From positions 64,001-128,000 of the IMG/VR virus record IMGVR_UViG_3300031867_000008: DNA of 64,000 bases. The stretch is one strand, 5' to 3'. The stretch is from a virus (Duplodnaviria; Caudoviricetes). Below the pieces are notes generated by a model, which was given only the letters and a program-made list of their open reading frames with translations, was not told the DNA's origin and made no database searches. A program made the translations under genes and the position numbers. Shown here piece by piece: positions 42,001 through 53,792 of this stretch; position 1 is the stretch's first letter; each line of letters starts with the position of its first letter.

Positions 42001-43743
42001 TTATATTAAGAATCCTACTTTTTTACTACTGGGTCTAAAATTCCAATCCTCAATTCTTACTTGTGCAGAACCATCGTAAATATCAAATATTCCAACAACG
42101 TCAAATTCAACTACATCCGATTTTATATCAAACATTTCCTTATATTCTTTGAGTAACGAACTACGACTAAACTTTACAAACGATACGTTTTTATACTTAA
42201 ACATTATTCTATTATTAGTTTTACCTAAGTTTTGAATCAGTGACTTCTTGATTGGAATACCTTTTATAACGAACAAAGGTTCATCTACTGAACAACCCCA
42301 CACATAATTGTACTTGGCAATATGCTTTACAATGTCACCGGAGAAGTTTTCAGCTTCATAATCAGCACAAACCGTATACACGTTGTCACCAAACGCTGGA
42401 GTTTGTGAAAGCAAGTCGAATAAAAGTTCAGTTTTATCAGTGAAAATTTGCGCTCCAAAGGCATTTTCATGTCCATCAAGTCCAAAAAATAACCCAGTTG
42501 ACTTACACCAAGCCTTAAAATCTGTCAGTTCACACTTCAAATAACCTCGTCCACTTCCCTTACAAACGCCATTATTCTCTCTTAAAAGCAAGCAAGGCTT
42601 TTTGTACATAGAAGCTAATCGTCCCGCAATCAGTCCTGTTGAATTACTATCCACATCTTCGCCAGCGTTTACTACTAAGATAGGATATTGATTCAAACCA
42701 TACTCAGCGATTTCTTCACTGAGTTTTTCTGAACTTTCTTCTGTGATGCTTTTCTGTTTTCTGTTTGTAGATTCACACGCTCGTCTGACATACTCTTGTA
42801 TACTCATTTCAACTTCGCCTTTACCACGAACTTTTCTCACAAGTTTTTTATCAGAATTACAGAACGCTTCAAACATTAAAAGTTTTTCTTCTCTTGTACC
42901 AAGTCTTATCAAAGAGTTAATCATGGGACAAATATAAAAGGCAATTCCATTAACAGTAATTTTGTTACTCATAGAATAAGACTGAGATTGAATAAGTTCT
43001 TTAATAAAAAGATTTTTGCTTATCCCTTTAGAAATTTCTTCAAGTCCTCGGAAAACATAATAACGAGATTGATTTTGAAACAGATTACACTTATCACCTA
43101 TCATTCCAACAGCAATCAAATCATAATAATCATTACTCCAATTACAACCGATTTCATTATCAACAGCCCTACAAAATTTATAGACTATTCCTACACCAGT
43201 CATAGCTTTGTCTTTTATATTTTCTTCAAGTTGATTGTTTATAATAATCGCTTTATTATCTTTTGGGTCAATTGGGTGATGATCTAATATAATTACTTGA
43301 CAACCAGTATCAATTAAAGAATTACATTCTTTTGCATTACCAGTACCAGCGTCAGGAACAATGAGCAAATCAAGTTTAGCATCAATAATCTCATTCACAA
43401 CATCTTCGAGTCCATGAATTTTACGATCATGTATGTAATATTTCAATGTTAAATCAGATTTAAACTCTTTTTGTATTCTTAAAAGATAACTCATCATGAA
43501 TGCTGCGGAAGTATAACCATCACAATCACAGTCAACCACAACACCTACTCTTGGACGATCCTCTTTTAATTTCATCATAAACAAATCCACAGCCTCTCGC
43601 ATATGCCGAAATGACTTTACAGATTCATTATACTTTATAGTTGGCTTTAAAAAGAAATCAGTATCTTCAACACCTTTAGAAACAAGAATTGATTCTACAC
43701 TATTATCAAAATTTATATTTTCATCAATTTTATAATCAAACAC
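42001..43743 (-). CDS. recJ: RecJ-like DHH ssDNA exonuclease
   Basis: DCDCDGY, ILDHH, GSGRG, GHENAFG. Confidence 0.9.
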   Translation of the reverse strand: MFDYKIDENINFDNSVESILVSKGVEDTDFFLKPTIKYNESVKSFRHMREAVDLFMMKLKEDRPRVGVVVDCDCDGYTSAAFMMSYLLRIQKEFKSDLTLKYYIHDRKIHGLEDVVNEIIDAKLDLLIVPDAGTGNAKECNSLIDTGCQVIILDHHPIDPKDNKAIIINNQLEENIKDKAMTGVGIVYKFCRAVDNEIGCNWSNDYYDLIAVGMIGDKCNLFQNQSRYYVFRGLEEISKGISKNLFIKELIQSQSYSMSNKITVNGIAFYICPMINSLIRLGTREEKLLMFEAFCNSDKKLVRKVRGKGEVEMSIQEYVRRACESTNRKQKSITEESSEKLSEEIAEYGLNQYPILVVNAGEDVDSNSTGLIAGRLASMYKKPCLLLRENNGVCKGSGRGYLKCELTDFKAWCKSTGLFFGLDGHENAFGAQIFTDKTELLFDLLSQTPAFGDNVYTVCADYEAENFSGDIVKHIAKYNYVWGCSVDEPLFVIKGIPIKKSLIQNLGKTNNRIMFKYKNVSFVKFSRSSLLKEYKEMFDIKSDVVEFDVVGIFDIYDGSAQVRIEDWNFRPSSKKVGFLI

Positions 43744-43768
43744 TTCATCACCTTATCTTTCATCAAAC

Positions 43769-44881
43769 CTAATCTCCAATCGCAGGAACATATATTTTAT
43801 TATCCATCAACTTTAACAACGTATCTTTCCCTCGATCAGTGGGAGAATCTTTATATCCAAGTAACTCATCCGAATCTAAAAGAACTGTGACTTTAACATA
43901 AGCAGCTAATGGTTTTATAAAATGCTTAAAGATATGTTCTATCCATAAGTCATATTCTTCTGTATCAACCTTTTGATATTGTTTATCTAAAGCTACAATC
44001 ACTTCATTGATGTCAAGTTTGAGTATTGTTTTGCGTTGCCATTCACTTAAATTAGAACCACAAACAGCTACGGTAAAATTATCTTCGCCAAACATGGTAT
44101 CAGTTTGAAGAACAGATTTTTCTCCCTCCACAAGCATGATTTTATGTTTTCTTTGTATAGCTTCAAGATTGAAATTCAAACCGTATAAATTCTTTCCCAA
44201 AGGATGACTAAAATAATAATCTCCGAGTCTAAATGGGGAATACTTACCAAAATTTTCTTCATTCTCAGGGATAACATTTCGACCTCTTACTCCGATCAAT
44301 CTATCATATCTATCCCTATGAGGAATAATTATTTTCTGCTGCCAAGTACAATATTTGATACTATACTTTTTCATAGATTGAATCGAAATTCCTTCATTGA
44401 TCCACGAACTACTATATTGCTCTGAAAAAATTCTTAGTATTCGCTCATCATACTCAGGAATCAATTCATCAGTTGTTCTTTGTTTCTTGCGTTTTTTACT
44501 CCAACGATTTATAAAAGACCAATCACTACATTTCTCATTTTTAGGGTTATTTAGTTTACCAAACTGACCGTAAACATAGTCTTGCCATTTGAGATTGACC
44601 TTTATCCATTGAATAGCTTTTGGAAATTCATCCAATGTAAAATCTTTATAGTGCATAACCAAACCGATTATGTCCATTGAACCGCATTCGGTATAACAAT
44701 GAAAAGTTTTAGTCAGTTTATAATAATACAACTTAGGCTTATTGCCGCCGTGACAAACAGTATCAGTTATCCAATAAGTATCATTTTCAGAGAACCATGT
44801 AGCACCCATTATTTCAAGCAGCAGTCTAATTTCATCTTCTGTGATTCGTTCTTTTAATTCTTCGGCAGTCAAAAGATTCAC
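43769..44881 (-). CDS. DNA primase
   Basis: Zn motif CH...CYTEC; TOPRIM VEGEKS...ALD. Confidence 0.88.
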   Translation of the reverse strand: MNLLTAEELKERITEDEIRLLLEIMGATWFSENDTYWITDTVCHGGNKPKLYYYKLTKTFHCYTECGSMDIIGLVMHYKDFTLDEFPKAIQWIKVNLKWQDYVYGQFGKLNNPKNEKCSDWSFINRWSKKRKKQRTTDELIPEYDERILRIFSEQYSSSWINEGISIQSMKKYSIKYCTWQQKIIIPHRDRYDRLIGVRGRNVIPENEENFGKYSPFRLGDYYFSHPLGKNLYGLNFNLEAIQRKHKIMLVEGEKSVLQTDTMFGEDNFTVAVCGSNLSEWQRKTILKLDINEVIVALDKQYQKVDTEEYDLWIEHIFKHFIKPLAAYVKVTVLLDSDELLGYKDSPTDRGKDTLLKLMDNKIYVPAIGD

Positions 44882-49854: not shown

Positions 49855-49943
49855 TGGTGTTGGCAATAGGATTTGAACCTATAAATCTCTTGTACTTCGA
49901 GAACAGTGTTTACACTGCGCCTATGACATTTGGCTATACCAAC
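49855..49943 (-). tRNA. Atypical or degenerate tRNA with encoded CCA
   Basis: Acceptor stem and GGTTCAAATCC T-arm are intact; anticodon loop is shortened (cagtg-taaa-cactg); long variable arm. Confidence 0.55.
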
Positions 49944-49950
49944 ATTTTAA

Positions 49951-50023
49951 TGCGCCTAATGGGACTCGAACCCATGCTCCCTTGATTAAAAGTCAAGTGC
50001 TTTACCAACTAAGCTATAAGCGC
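49951..50023 (-). tRNA. tRNA-Lys(TTT)
   Basis: cttga-ctTTTaa-tcaag; canonical D and T arms. Confidence 0.92.
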
Positions 50024-50029
50024 ATAATC

Positions 50030-50450
50030 ACTAACCACACAACAGCTTTGTGGACAACTAAACGATAACAAAACCAACTCGCAAAACCAATCTCAAAGAT
50101 TTTCCTAAACTGTAATCTGTAAACTGTAACATTTCAACTTTAACTTCGGCAGCTCTTACAGGATATGAATTACACATAATCATAATAAAAGCCTATAAAC
50201 TTTCAGCTTTGTAGCTTTAATTCTTAATCGTTAAGTGTTAAACTTTACAGAATCTAATCTAAATAATTTTGCACCCAATGGTGGGACTTTAACCCACATA
50301 CTCATATTTATCAGATATGCGCCTGTTACAATTCGGCTACATTGGAAGTAATCTTAATAATTCCTTTTCATTAAGAACTATTATTATAGCATTATACTTA
50401 CCCTGTATAATAAGGTGGTTTTAATTTATAGTTTTCGTTGTGCAGTTAGT
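50030..50450 (-). ncRNA. Putative large structured RNA with heptamer repeats enclosing tRNA-Ile
   Basis: 14-bp terminal helix (50450-50437 with 50043-50030, two G-U pairs); two heptamer arrays. Confidence 0.6.
50273..50346 (-). tRNA. tRNA-Ile(GAT) with variant T-loop
   Basis: catat-ctGATaa-atatg; T-loop reads GTTAAAG. Confidence 0.7.
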
Positions 50451-50482
50451 AAATAGAAATATGAAATTAGCTCATTATCTCA

Positions 50483-51118
50483 TCAATACTCTACTGTAAT
50501 CTTTGTCAGAGCATTACTTATACTAAGAGTAGCATCAACCTTGCTCATAAATGTATCGGTTTCAGTAGAAAGGGATTCGATGATCTTTTCGCAACCAATG
50601 GGGTCAATGAGGTCAAGGGAATTATCCTCTATGAACTTCGCCTTTGCACTCTCGATTACATCCTTATTAACTGACTCCTTGTTAGCGTAAGCTCTTTCAA
50701 CATATGATATTGCCTTATCAGAGATGGTGTCATTTATAGCGTGAATATTTCTGGTAGCTATATTGTAATCAGCAGATACTTTATTGAGAAGCATTTCCTT
50801 GAACTCTATGCCACTACGCTTGTATTCAATAGCTTCTGCTACGGTCATTGAAACATCGCCTATTGTTACAACAGTTGTTGCATTTGAATTGGTTACAGCT
50901 TTCTTGATAGCTGTTCTACGTTTAATTAGATCAGTTATCTTCGCATACTTAGCCTGAATAGTGGTCTTATAATCGTTAATTGCAATACCGTTTATCTTGG
51001 TGTTACAACGCTGGTTAAAATCAGCAAACTTGGCTTCTGAGATTTCCTTCTTAATTCTCTTGTCGAGAACTTTCAGCTCAGACAGTGCTTCGTGAATCGT
51101 CATAGTTTCAGTTGTCAT
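50483..51118 (-). CDS. Coiled-coil protein of DIP1984/DUF6847-like type
   Basis: MTIHEALSELKVLDKRI...MTVAEAIE...VDATLSISNA. Confidence 0.6.
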   Translation of the reverse strand: MTTETMTIHEALSELKVLDKRIKKEISEAKFADFNQRCNTKINGIAINDYKTTIQAKYAKITDLIKRRTAIKKAVTNSNATTVVTIGDVSMTVAEAIEYKRSGIEFKEMLLNKVSADYNIATRNIHAINDTISDKAISYVERAYANKESVNKDVIESAKAKFIEDNSLDLIDPIGCEKIIESLSTETDTFMSKVDATLSISNALTKITVEY

Positions 51119-51167
51119 AAATTATTTCTCCTTGTCAAATAAAATTTAAGTTTTATATGCCTATCAT

Positions 51168-51214
51168 ACACAATATATAGTATATGCTTCAATTTACATA
51201 TCTATATATTGTAT
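51168..51214. promoter_or_regulatory. Tandem NrdR-box-like pair
   Basis: acaCaATATATaGtat (51168) and tatCtATATATtGtat (51199), 31 bp apart. Confidence 0.65.
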
Positions 51215-51294: not shown

Positions 51295-51633
51295 GTGAAC
51301 AAAACTCAATCTCAAACCTTTACGAATAAATTTAGATCAGTTATTTCTATTTTTATTCTGCCTTATCTGTGTGTACATCACAAACCGCCAGTCTGAGATT
51401 GAGCGTAGGTTTTCGGGGCGGGTTGTCCTACAACCCTACATCATCGAAGAAAACCACTTGTGAACAAAACAGTCACGACCTTTCTTTTATATGATTGTGA
51501 ATTATTTTCTTTTGTCTCAGCAGTATCTTTTGACTGTCCTACTACTGTTCGCAACAGCAAAAGACTTACCGAGACAAAAATTATAGGAGGTACACGATGA
51601 ACAGAAAGCAGATCATCGTAAATTGGAGAAAAG

Positions 51634-51718
51634 CTGGGAAGGTGGGATTTGAACCCACGACAGATAAATCATGCAGAGGTCAAAGCTCTGTGTGTTAAAA
51701 CCACTTCACCACTTCCCA
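51634..51718 (-). tRNA. tRNA-Gln(TTG) with extended variable region
   Basis: cagag-ctTTGac-ctctg; GGTTCAAATCC; 85 nt long. Confidence 0.8.
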
Positions 51719-52130: not shown

Positions 52131-52188
52131 ATTATATCACAACTCATTCTGTATGTCAAGTACTTTTCAACAGTCACTGACGATTTTA
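52131..52188 (-). promoter_or_regulatory. Consensus sigma-A promoter with operator-like motif, driving the tRNA/replication region
   Basis: TTGACA (52154-59)-17-TATAAT (52131-36). Confidence 0.78.
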
Positions 52189-52297: not shown

Positions 52298-53215
52298 TTA
52301 ATTATTGTTCTGATCGTTCTGAGCGTTCATAGCGTTAATCTTCTGCTCTTTCCACAATTGATACCTTTCTTCATTTACAATTGTAAAATGGCTTATGGTT
52401 GCAGTGACTATCTCTTTGTAACTGATCGTAGAGTTTGTTTTGCTATTGTTTATATCCTCTGTTGCAAACACTCTAAAAAATTCCCCAGCTTGTATTATAT
52501 TTGAAGAATTAAGTTTTATATTTGCTAATTTGTTAAGCATTCTTTTTATCGTTTTAACATTCATTTTTTTTAGAATGTAATATTGGTCATTATAAGACTT
52601 GACCGTTCCTTTTTTCTGATTGTTAGCCCTTACATAAGTTGTTGCAGTTGCCAAGAGCATTATTTTATCTTTTATCAGTTGATTGTCTATCTTTACACCA
52701 TTCGGCAATATAAATGTGTTCGTTATGTTCTTCGCAAAAATATTCGTTGCCTGCTCATCGCTGCAACCGTAGTAGAGAAGATAGCCATATACTTCGGCAA
52801 TCAAAAAATAGCTGGAATAATCGAAATCTCTCTTCTTACCATATGCGGCAATAGCTTTTTTAAATTCATTATATAATTCATTAGGATCAAACACGTAATT
52901 ACTCTTACCCGAATCAATGACTGCCTTTTTTATATCGTTTTCGTTCAATAAATTGTATTGAGGTCTTTTACAAAAAACTCTAAATTCGTTTATGAGTTTT
53001 CGGTCTTTACTATAGCATTCATAACTCACACGGTTTTCTTGAATGAATACCTCGTTAATCTCTTGCTCGTTGAAGTCCAACAAGCTACGTTTCTTATCTT
53101 TTTCGTATCCTGCAAAGATGTTGAATAATGCTTCTGCTCGTTTTTTTCGATGATCCTTTGTCAAATAGTTATTGATAAAATCTTCTTTCAACTCTTTATC
53201 ATAAATTATTTTCAT
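52298..53215 (-). CDS. MrpR/YopR-like repressor (degenerate tyrosine-recombinase fold)
   Basis: YDKELKEDFI...FAGYEKDKKRSLLDFNEQEI N-terminus resembles the SPbeta master-repressor family (recognised from memory). Confidence 0.55.
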   Translation of the reverse strand: MKIIYDKELKEDFINNYLTKDHRKKRAEALFNIFAGYEKDKKRSLLDFNEQEINEVFIQENRVSYECYSKDRKLINEFRVFCKRPQYNLLNENDIKKAVIDSGKSNYVFDPNELYNEFKKAIAAYGKKRDFDYSSYFLIAEVYGYLLYYGCSDEQATNIFAKNITNTFILPNGVKIDNQLIKDKIMLLATATTYVRANNQKKGTVKSYNDQYYILKKMNVKTIKRMLNKLANIKLNSSNIIQAGEFFRVFATEDINNSKTNSTISYKEIVTATISHFTIVNEERYQLWKEQKINAMNAQNDQNNN

Positions 53216-53387
53216 TTTTAAAAGCCTACCTTTCATGTTAAAATGTCGGCAATAATTCTTACACAATTATATAAGTATATACTTATAGTCTTGTTTATAA
53301 TTATATACCAAAATAAGTAACAGTTTATAGATAGACTTTTATATAATGAAAAAGTATGTTTTAAATGCTTGTTAATTGTGTTATAAT

Positions 53388-53792
53388 TCAGCAAATTCCG
53401 ACCTGAACTAATATTTTTTCATTGACAACATTCATTATTTCCGTAGGCAACGCACCAATGCAATTACGAAGTCTGCTTTTGTCAACGGTACGCATCTGTT
53501 CGACCACAAGGGTGGAATCTTTGGTTAATCCACCAGTTCCTTTCATTAAGGAAACGTGTGTAGGTATTGACTTCTTATGTGCAGAGGTTATAGGAACTAC
53601 AAGCACTGTATTACTGTAATAATTTCCTTTATCATTTTGAACAATGAGGACAGGTCTAATTCCCTGCTGCTCAGAACCACACCCCTGACCTAAGTCAGCG
53701 ATATACACCTGTCCTCGCTTAACTCGTTCACAATCCGCAAAGGATAAACTCGTTCTGTTCATAGCGTTTGTTGAAATTGTAGTGTTAGTCAT
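53388..53792 (-). CDS. mazF: MazF/PemK endoribonuclease, no adjacent MazE
   Basis: KRGQVYIADL, GSEQQGIRPVLIVQND, VPITS, EQMRTVDKSRL. Confidence 0.92.
   Translation of the reverse strand: MTNTTISTNAMNRTSLSFADCERVKRGQVYIADLGQGCGSEQQGIRPVLIVQNDKGNYYSNTVLVVPITSAHKKSIPTHVSLMKGTGGLTKDSTLVVEQMRTVDKSRLRNCIGALPTEIMNVVNEKILVQVGIC

Follow-up and report, generated by a model that had tools for sequence, protein, structure and literature searches.

The 64,000-nucleotide stretch analysed here (the window) corresponds to bases 64001-128000 of IMG/VR record IMGVR_UViG_3300031867_000008, a complete phage record of 140,956 bp that bears direct terminal repeats. On its minus strand a tRNA cluster runs in the order Leu, Gln, Pro, an open reading frame (ORF), Ile, Lys, an aberrant tRNA and Leu. 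The ORF (51118-50483, 211 amino acids, TGA stop at 50485-50483) encodes what we call the partner protein and is followed by a structured RNA within which the tRNA-Ile is nested. Here we describe this RNA (50452-50028, minus strand), which is almost certainly a member of a real RNA family tied to the partner gene. An earlier note, made from the letters of the window alone, had drawn attention to a closing helix of 14 base pairs (bp) whose two G-U pairs work only on the minus strand, to an inner AACUA/UAGUU helix, to two runs of degenerate heptamers and to an embedded tRNA-Ile. All of these elements are present, and each takes its place in the fold described below.

The closing helix and the fold of the RNA

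The closing helix, P1, begins about 30 nucleotides (nt) past the TGA stop of the partner gene, where the arm acuaacugcacaac pairs with guugugugguuagu. Extended to 16 bp, including the two G-U pairs, it joins RNA positions 1-16 (window 50452-50437) to positions 410-425 (50043-50028), RNA position p being window coordinate 50453 - p. Taken by itself, the window sequence makes the terminal helix no more than suggestive: when the first 80 nt are matched with the last 80 nt the longest helix has 17 pairs, and helices of at least 14 pairs arise in 38 of 2000 shuffles. The region as a whole folds with a z-score of -3.3. On the basis of sequence comparison, the relatives are decisive. Close relatives, with partner proteins 66-95% identical in amino acid sequence, retain the non-coding region and the closing helix, and in three of them (L087, L083 and L085) 14 of 14 pairs are kept through compensatory changes, from C-G to U-A, from A-U to G-C and from G-U to Watson-Crick.

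The same helix can be followed through the wider family. A P1 finder that asks for 10 bp, with GAAAAC behind the 5' arm and the 3' arm starting within GCUG, returns a full 10/10-bp helix at the matching place in about 70 of 88 loci. The arms take 46 distinct sequences among 59 non-redundant RNAs, and 95 of 590 pairs (16%) are G-U, which places the RNA on the strand of the gene.

Five further helices vary in concert. P2, between the AAAC... strand that follows P1 and the strand just 3' of hairpin D, occurs family-wide at fixed offsets as 42 distinct helix sequences. PK-L, also family-wide, pairs positions of about 22-30 with the 12-13 nt loop of hairpin D over 6-10 bp. An H-type pseudoknot at about positions 27-62 has a native score of 14.2 compared to 9.1 in shuffles; it was scored in 47 of 47 sequences, mostly at one common site and with differing sequences. 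Helix C has the family form UCCNNG with CNNGGC, with UA, AU, CG and GC pair types at two columns. By comparative analysis there are thus six covarying helices (P1, P2, PK-L, the H-type pseudoknot, helix C and hairpin D), three of them crossing. Helix C is crossed by both P2 and PK-L, which makes the RNA multiply knotted.

A formal count over 31 pairs, for which 47 sequences were aligned with MAFFT without any fitting to the structure, finds 79.6% of cells paired compared to 56.7% in shuffles, and 360 cells with double changes compared to 140±10 (reached in 0 of 500 shuffles). Covariation scores 0.531, and slid partners give no more than 0.263. One-column MAFFT shifts lower the counts for P2 and PK-L, and alignments of the variable middle are approximate. 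Given a plain MAFFT alignment of the 3' domain, RNAalifold recovered helix C only; the remaining helices were found through position-anchored tests of native against non-native pairing in fixed windows, which were used instead of an unrestricted best-helix test that was noisy in this AU-rich RNA. These tests show a compact knotted core, in which the 5' 60 nt (P1, P2, the PK-L strand and the pseudoknot) are locked with the 3' 75 nt (C, C' and hairpin D). The string tataat at 50397-50391, considered as a -10 box for the tRNA, was rejected, as it is stem B of the covarying pseudoknot.

The heptamer arrays are no low-complexity filler. Their autocorrelation peaks at lags of 7, 14 and 21 (0.40, 0.37 and 0.37, compared to a shuffle mean of 0.30), and the commonest spacing of successive AAG triplets is 7. 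A position weight matrix (PWM) of the heptamer reads Y, A (99%), A (85%), A, G, N, U (94%); the family median is 11 units per RNA, and the window copy gives 13 PWM hits. In the MAFFT alignment the arrays of the different family members keep a common register, and invariant A and U columns recur at intervals of 7 nt; the folding of the array region does not exceed that of dinucleotide shuffles (z = -0.4). The reading of the heptamers as periodic, unpaired and suited to repeated binding, offered in the earlier note, fits these results. In register, periodic and unfolded, the arrays are best seen as a single-stranded periodic display: the alignments show a long loop with about 11-13 YAAAGNU heptamers, apparently without local structure and held out by the core. 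Pairing between the two arrays was rejected, as their polarity is identical and the region folds like shuffles.

The nested tRNA-Ile(GAU) reaches 53.8 bits with Rfam RF00005 (gathering score 29), and ARAGORN agrees. In independent lineages a tRNA is found at this one site, immediately behind the pseudoknot (Ile in this phage; elsewhere Val, Thr, an aberrant tRNA, and Gln in L003), and most members of the RNA family have no nested tRNA. This combination of recurring insertion with absence in most members marks the site as a permissive peripheral loop, at which tRNA-Ile would be an inserted passenger. It is plausible that processing of the nested tRNA cuts the RNA in two. If tRNA-Ile were released by RNase P and 3' processing, the RNA would consist of two pieces joined by P1, P2 and PK-L, about 29 bp. 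With 3 nt between the end of the P1 3' arm and tRNA-Lys, RNase P cleavage at the 5' end of this next tRNA would set the 3' end of the RNA. In more than 20 loci among 80 contigs the first tRNA starts about 350-450 nt past the gene stop, close behind the RNA. Lactococcus phage 949 and Brevibacillus phage Jenst instead carry an intrinsic terminator behind the RNA, which in phages without a next tRNA would form its end.

Two observations concern tRNAs inside copies of the RNA. The anticodon of the nested tRNA-Ile is AAU in a 95%-identical relative (L086, 893-966) compared to GAU here, a single-base difference. In the jumbo Erwinia phage Deimos-Minion (L093, ~2150-2530) two tRNA-like half-molecules lie in swapped order, apparently inside an RNA copy whose P1 assignment is uncertain, with the T arm and 3' acceptor preceding the 5' acceptor and D arm. 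This suggests that the insert is a permuted or split tRNA.

Table 1. The partner gene, the RNA with its elements, and nearby signals, in window coordinates
Feature	Position	Strand	Basis
Partner gene, T5.085 / phrog_1491 family	50483..51118	-	profile match, homologs, AF2 model
Whole structured RNA, 425 nt	50028..50452	-	sequence and relatives
P1 5' arm, 16 nt; conserved GAAAAC directly after	50437..50452	-	
Conserved junction motif GAAAACUA; its AACUA is the P2 5' strand	50429..50436	-	
P2: AACUA (RNA 20-24) with UAGUU (RNA 393-397)	50433-50429 with 50060-50056	-	
PK-L 5' strand UAAAACCA; partner UGGUUUUG in loop of hairpin D, 50076-50069	50416..50423	-	
H-type pseudoknot	50391..50416	-	native versus shuffle scoring
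Pseudoknot stem A: ACCUU with AGGGU	50416-50412 with 50404-50400	-	
Pseudoknot stem B: AUUAUAC with GUAUAAU	50411-50405 with 50397-50391	-	
Two small variable-insert hairpins, CUAU/AUAG and UCUUAAU/AUUAAGA	50352..50390	-	read from sequence; conserved in close relatives only
Nested tRNA-Ile(GAU), RNA 107-180	50273..50346	-	ARAGORN; Rfam
Heptamer array 1, ~7 units, consensus YAAAGNU; RNA ~204-258	50195..50249	-	
Central spacer between arrays; variable, hairpin in some relatives	50148..50194	-	
Heptamer array 2, ~6 units, here drifted to UUACAG-like; RNA ~306-348	50105..50147	-	
3' domain: GGAAAAU, helix C, C', hairpin D, P2 3' strand, GCUG	50044..50104	-	
Helix C: CUUUG with CAAAG	50098-50094 with 50050-50046	-	
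Helix C': UGG with CCA	50089-50087 with 50053-50051	-	
Hairpin D: GCGA with UCGU; loop carries PK-L strand	50082-50079 with 50065-50062	-	
P1 3' arm, from last G of conserved GCUG to 3 nt before tRNA-Lys	50028..50043	-	
tRNA-Lys(UUU), 3 nt behind RNA	49950..50024	-	ARAGORN; Rfam
Weak promoter-like site 5' of partner gene, candidate start of gene+RNA transcript	51163..51192	-	9/12 consensus match only
Perfect match to sigma-70-type promoter, TTGACA-17-TATAAT with TG, 5' of whole tRNA/gene/RNA cluster	52131..52159	-	consensus match only

Linkage between the RNA and its partner gene

The partner protein has 702 homologs in a large protein collection and relatives in 722 cultured-phage records (tblastn). 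Among 80 viral contigs with a more distant protein, at 29-52% identity, the gap between the gene and the first tRNA behind it holds the same RNA architecture. The RNA was located by eye and by script in phages 949 and Jenst and in Salmonella Seunavirus, with further copies in a T5-like phage, in Bacillus phage CM1 and in C. difficile phiCDIF1296T. Phage T5 itself has the gene as T5.085, with the RNA at 43486-43150 of NC_005859, a gap in which nothing is annotated. Across 441 T5-like records the gene+RNA unit keeps an identity of at least 88%, and no RNA is annotated at this place in any of them. Across the family the RNA measures 260-430 nt, and the hosts span Lactococcus, Bacillus and Clostridioides to Escherichia, Vibrio and Erwinia. 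The terminal helix, with covariation, and the heptamers, on whose presence in homologous loci the earlier note had staked its proposal, are kept there.

A hidden Markov model (HMM) of the 3' domain finds matches in 84 of 95 sources, one in each, always on the strand of the gene and always 200-450 nt past it. Most of the sources missed by the HMM carry divergent copies visible by eye, and the same HMM finds no second copy of the RNA in the 64-kb window. For the reverse test, a pattern describing the RNA only, and limited to the GAUAAAAUCC subfamily, was run over all viral contigs and gave 110 matches, 80 of which were fetched. Helix-C complementarity and P1/GAAAAC are also found in 32 of the fetched matches. 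Among structurally valid RNAs with at least 650 nt of upstream DNA, the gene lies directly upstream in 25 of 25, compared to 0 of 37 chance matches without the RNA structure. The linkage persists through wholesale change of the neighbouring genes. Counted across these genomes, gene and RNA are shown to co-occur almost without exception in both directions, as expected from the proposal that a structured RNA on the gene's strand is tied to the gene upstream of it.

The surroundings of the unit can be summarised briefly. In T5 the unit adjoins nrdA, nrdB, thy and frd. In the window, AT-rich palindromic boxes between tRNA-Pro and the partner gene (51168-51214) are candidate NrdR boxes; if this reading is true, the gene+RNA unit would be under control that senses deoxynucleoside triphosphates. 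A promoter search between the partner gene and the RNA found none evident. HNH/homing endonuclease genes are inserted beside or inside the unit in L085 (5058-6074) and in the T5-like H106, H108 and H111, and split matches among the T5-like phages come in two pieces totalling about 1620 nt compared to 1081 nt. A DNA search of the whole tRNA/RNA region against cultured phages returned tRNA fragments only.

The tRNA cluster has SPbeta-like neighbours, namely MazF, an MrpR-like gene and YorF-like, Sak4-like and YorH-like genes. The PemK/MazF-type toxin gene (53388-53792, minus strand; E 1e-30) lies just upstream of the cluster and is followed by the MrpR-like gene (52298-53266, minus strand), which has the core-binding domain only. 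Within the cluster, tRNA-Gln(UUG) (51633-51718, minus strand) measures 86 nt, about 12 nt above the usual length; this length is kept in relatives L082 and L084, and is 73 nt in L087. The extra length may be an insert or an enlarged arm. Directly after tRNA-Lys lies an aberrant 89-nt tRNA-like gene (49855-49943, minus strand; Rfam tRNA 39.5 bits), retained in L086, to which ARAGORN assigns a two-base 'anticodon' (aa) at position 33 and in which a 6-nt anticodon loop and a long extra arm are seen by eye.

The partner protein and the proposed particle

The partner protein matches the profile phrog_1491 (E 9.1e-51), its residues 3-210 covering profile positions 2-210 of 211. The T5 member, T5.085 (annotated at 43505-44143 of NC_005859), is syntenic with the homolog in the T5-like phage VEc33. 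The earlier note had called the gene a coiled-coil gene; a better description, from the confident AlphaFold2 (AF2) model, is that of a four-helix bundle to which short beta hairpins are added (predicted local distance difference test, pLDDT, 87.7). Two SNAxT motifs and several basic residues are conserved. When two copies are modelled together the score is 0.69, compared to 0.05 for the best of 3 controls. The mark used for a homodimer is reached by 20 of 30 proteins solved as one-chain pairs and by 1 of 23 solved as single chains, and the homodimer runs agree in at least 99% of contacts with a partner pLDDT of at least 89. This supports, but does not show, that the partner protein is a symmetric homodimer.

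Searches of the partner protein against Pfam, NCBIfam, PADLOC and PDB sequences gave nothing above noise. Structural comparison with VIA-align returned generic helical bundles only, with Z no higher than 9.6, within the noise range of helical models. A weak likeness, at template-modelling (TM) scores of 0.53/0.64, is seen to an ESM Atlas cluster, 10% of whose members carry DUF6847. DUF6847/DIP1984 (PF20935; PDB 3KDQ) resembles the partner family in that both are small helical proteins of phages and bacteria; the DUF6847 Pfam model matches 1 of 23 members at E 0.063, which is noise level, and 3KDQ stands at rank 22 of the Foldseek list with E 0.44. The label 'tail fiber protein' found on family members is propagated and probably a mis-annotation: the model shows no fibre-like fold, and the gene is located outside the tail modules, in regions that are early or carry tRNAs.

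The explanation we favour, with confidence evenly balanced, is that the RNA and the T5.085-family protein form an undescribed ribonucleoprotein (RNP) in which protein dimers read the heptamers. The RNA would be made together with, and work with, the protein encoded directly upstream, and the dimers would occupy the evenly spaced heptamers in succession, much as spaced triplets are read by TRAP and HutP. The outcome would be a defined protein-RNA particle made early in infection. That the heptamers are the binding sites of the partner protein, as co-occurrence and the predicted homodimer only would have it, we place just short of an even chance. The constant location in tRNA islands and in nucleotide-metabolism or early regions points to a role of such a particle in RNA or translation biology or in counter-defence. 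A wider and more tentative proposal, which is rather unlikely to hold, sees an ancient viral RNP class in which the knotted core would serve as a ruler, offering roughly a dozen sites of 7 nt to one dimer apiece, and which would act on the host translation or tRNA machinery or on RNA-targeting defence in phages of Gram-positive and Gram-negative hosts, T5 included.

Several results weigh against an RNP of this kind. Co-occurrence of gene and RNA is also expected from shared transcription or cis-regulation. The predicted interface is that of a closed symmetric dimer, not of a ring or filament, and repeated binding would need several dimers. The protein family is mildly acidic (median isoelectric point 5.6, net charge about -4), family searches find no known RNA-binding domain in it, and Foldseek on the PDB returns no informative structural relative (no match at E <= 0.001). 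Array 2 of the window copy has drifted off the consensus. As read from its sequences, the family's acidity argues against unspecific RNA coating, not against sequence-specific reading.

The explanation that competes best with the RNP, although we consider it improbable, dispenses with the protein. The knotted RNA would be an RNA-only machine or a decoy whose heptamers soak up a host factor, tRNA anticodon loops or a defence ribonuclease, and the gene would be linked to it via a shared transcript or pathway. Such a protein-independent function has reportedly been proposed for the phage RNAs ROOL and GOLLD. The structural complexity here is typical of ornate RNAs, and ROOL and GOLLD also lie in tRNA islands (PMC12286853); the unstructured, A-rich arrays and an acidic protein without an RNA-binding domain fit this explanation as well. 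However, the wide host range would demand a universal host target, and a linkage of 25/25 and 84/95 that outlasts the turnover of neighbours is stricter than shared transcription requires.

Lower still in probability is a cis-acting element of the 3' untranslated region, not free-standing, that controls how the mRNA before it is stabilised, processed or translated, or how the tRNAs behind it mature. The start of the RNA only about 30 nt past the stop, with no evident promoter between, and the flanking tRNAs whose processing would cut the transcript are what such an element would look like. Its needs, judged by known 3' stabilisers and processing signals, are exceeded by six covarying helices, three of them crossing, and an 11-repeat array, and the RNA is kept whether a tRNA or a terminator comes next.

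The likeness to a protein-RNA toxin-antitoxin pair noted from the window alone, a repeated RNA beside a small protein gene, does not make for a supported reading, and we regard a type III-like pair as very improbable. ToxIN-like systems have repeats of about 34-36 nt upstream of an endoribonuclease gene, with a terminator between; here the repeats are of 7 nt rather than about 35 nt, lie downstream and are embedded in a knotted scaffold. Pfam, NCBIfam and PADLOC give no match to a ToxN/AbiQ-type or any other toxin or defence family, and strictly lytic phages, T5 among them, conserve the pair in their early or tRNA regions. A DNA-level element is hardly credible: short direct repeats and a terminal inverted repeat would suit iterons or an origin, but the G-U pairs of P1 would be A-C mismatches on the other strand, pairing is held by compensatory change while the sequence is free, and the orientation to the gene is constant. 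Hammerhead-like and reverse-transcriptase-template readings were set aside, with no matching family, no reverse transcriptase gene and G-U pairs on one strand only.

Six covarying helices with three crossing represent an elaboration on par with that of a riboswitch or small ribozyme. The RNA is present, unannotated, in hundreds of sequenced phages, among them the 60-year-old model T5, therapeutic-type Salmonella and E. coli phages and dairy phages, and it explains why phage genomes that are densely packed elsewhere retain about 350-450 nt of 'empty' DNA. If the RNP formed with the T5.085-family protein is real, the strict conservation of gene and RNA together, and the periodic array for binding, would mark it as a new kind of viral RNP.

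Comparison with known RNAs and systems

Searched with Rfam 15 at E <= 1, the window between 48500 and 53000 yields tRNAs only, and no GOLLD, ROOL, RAGATH or Y RNA. At the gathering score, 20 related loci yield only tRNAs, one drum RNA and one group I intron, the last two elsewhere in the loci: the drum RNA (68.6 bits; L017, 2127-2236) lies within a tRNA island upstream of the homologous gene, and the group I intron (64.8 bits; L034, 1409-1685) upstream in another homologous locus. A literature search covering T5.085, DUF6847/DIP1984, T5 non-coding RNAs and heptamer-repeat RNAs found no description of the RNA. It is likewise not described in the text of a viral catalogue of 10,006 motifs (PMC10690425), whose supplementary tables were not searched. 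As far as Rfam 15 and the searched literature show, the view that the RNA family is undescribed is supported, as the earlier note had supposed.

Both ROOL and GOLLD are found in the tRNA islands of phages, and the variable linker of GOLLD holds tRNAs in some cases (PMC12286853). In phage K, RNA-seq revealed two very abundant long non-coding RNAs beside tRNA genes, which its authors compare with ROOL and GOLLD (PMC9241854). Like the RNA described here, GOLLD and ROOL are large, multiply pseudoknotted phage RNAs in or beside tRNA islands, and the linker tRNA of GOLLD resembles the nested tRNA-Ile. They differ in length (about 580-800 nt compared to 260-430 nt) and in that the heptamer array and the obligate linkage to one protein gene are features of the RNA here. 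We know of no protein partner of ROOL or GOLLD.

TRAP (MtrB), acting on the trp leader, and HutP, acting on the hut mRNA, are oligomers of Bacillus subtilis that read evenly spaced short purine-rich motifs in single-stranded RNA, the HutP sites having a 7-nt period. Both are attenuation switches in mRNA leaders, whereas here the repeats stand in a knotted stand-alone scaffold. The protein here is also unrelated to them in sequence and fold, and is predicted to form a dimer, not a ring.

Bacterial Y RNA (YrlA) is outlined as an RNA with paired ends and a tRNA-like module, encoded beside its Ro60/Rsr partner (PMC4201824). The end-closing pairing, the tRNA module and the neighbouring protein gene are shared with the RNA here. 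Here, however, there is no Rfam match and no TROVE/Ro partner, and the tRNA is optional and absent in most members. The RNA of this phage is a member of none of these known classes; GOLLD and ROOL are nearest to it in kind, TRAP and HutP nearest in the proposed mechanism, and Y RNA with Ro60 nearest in layout.

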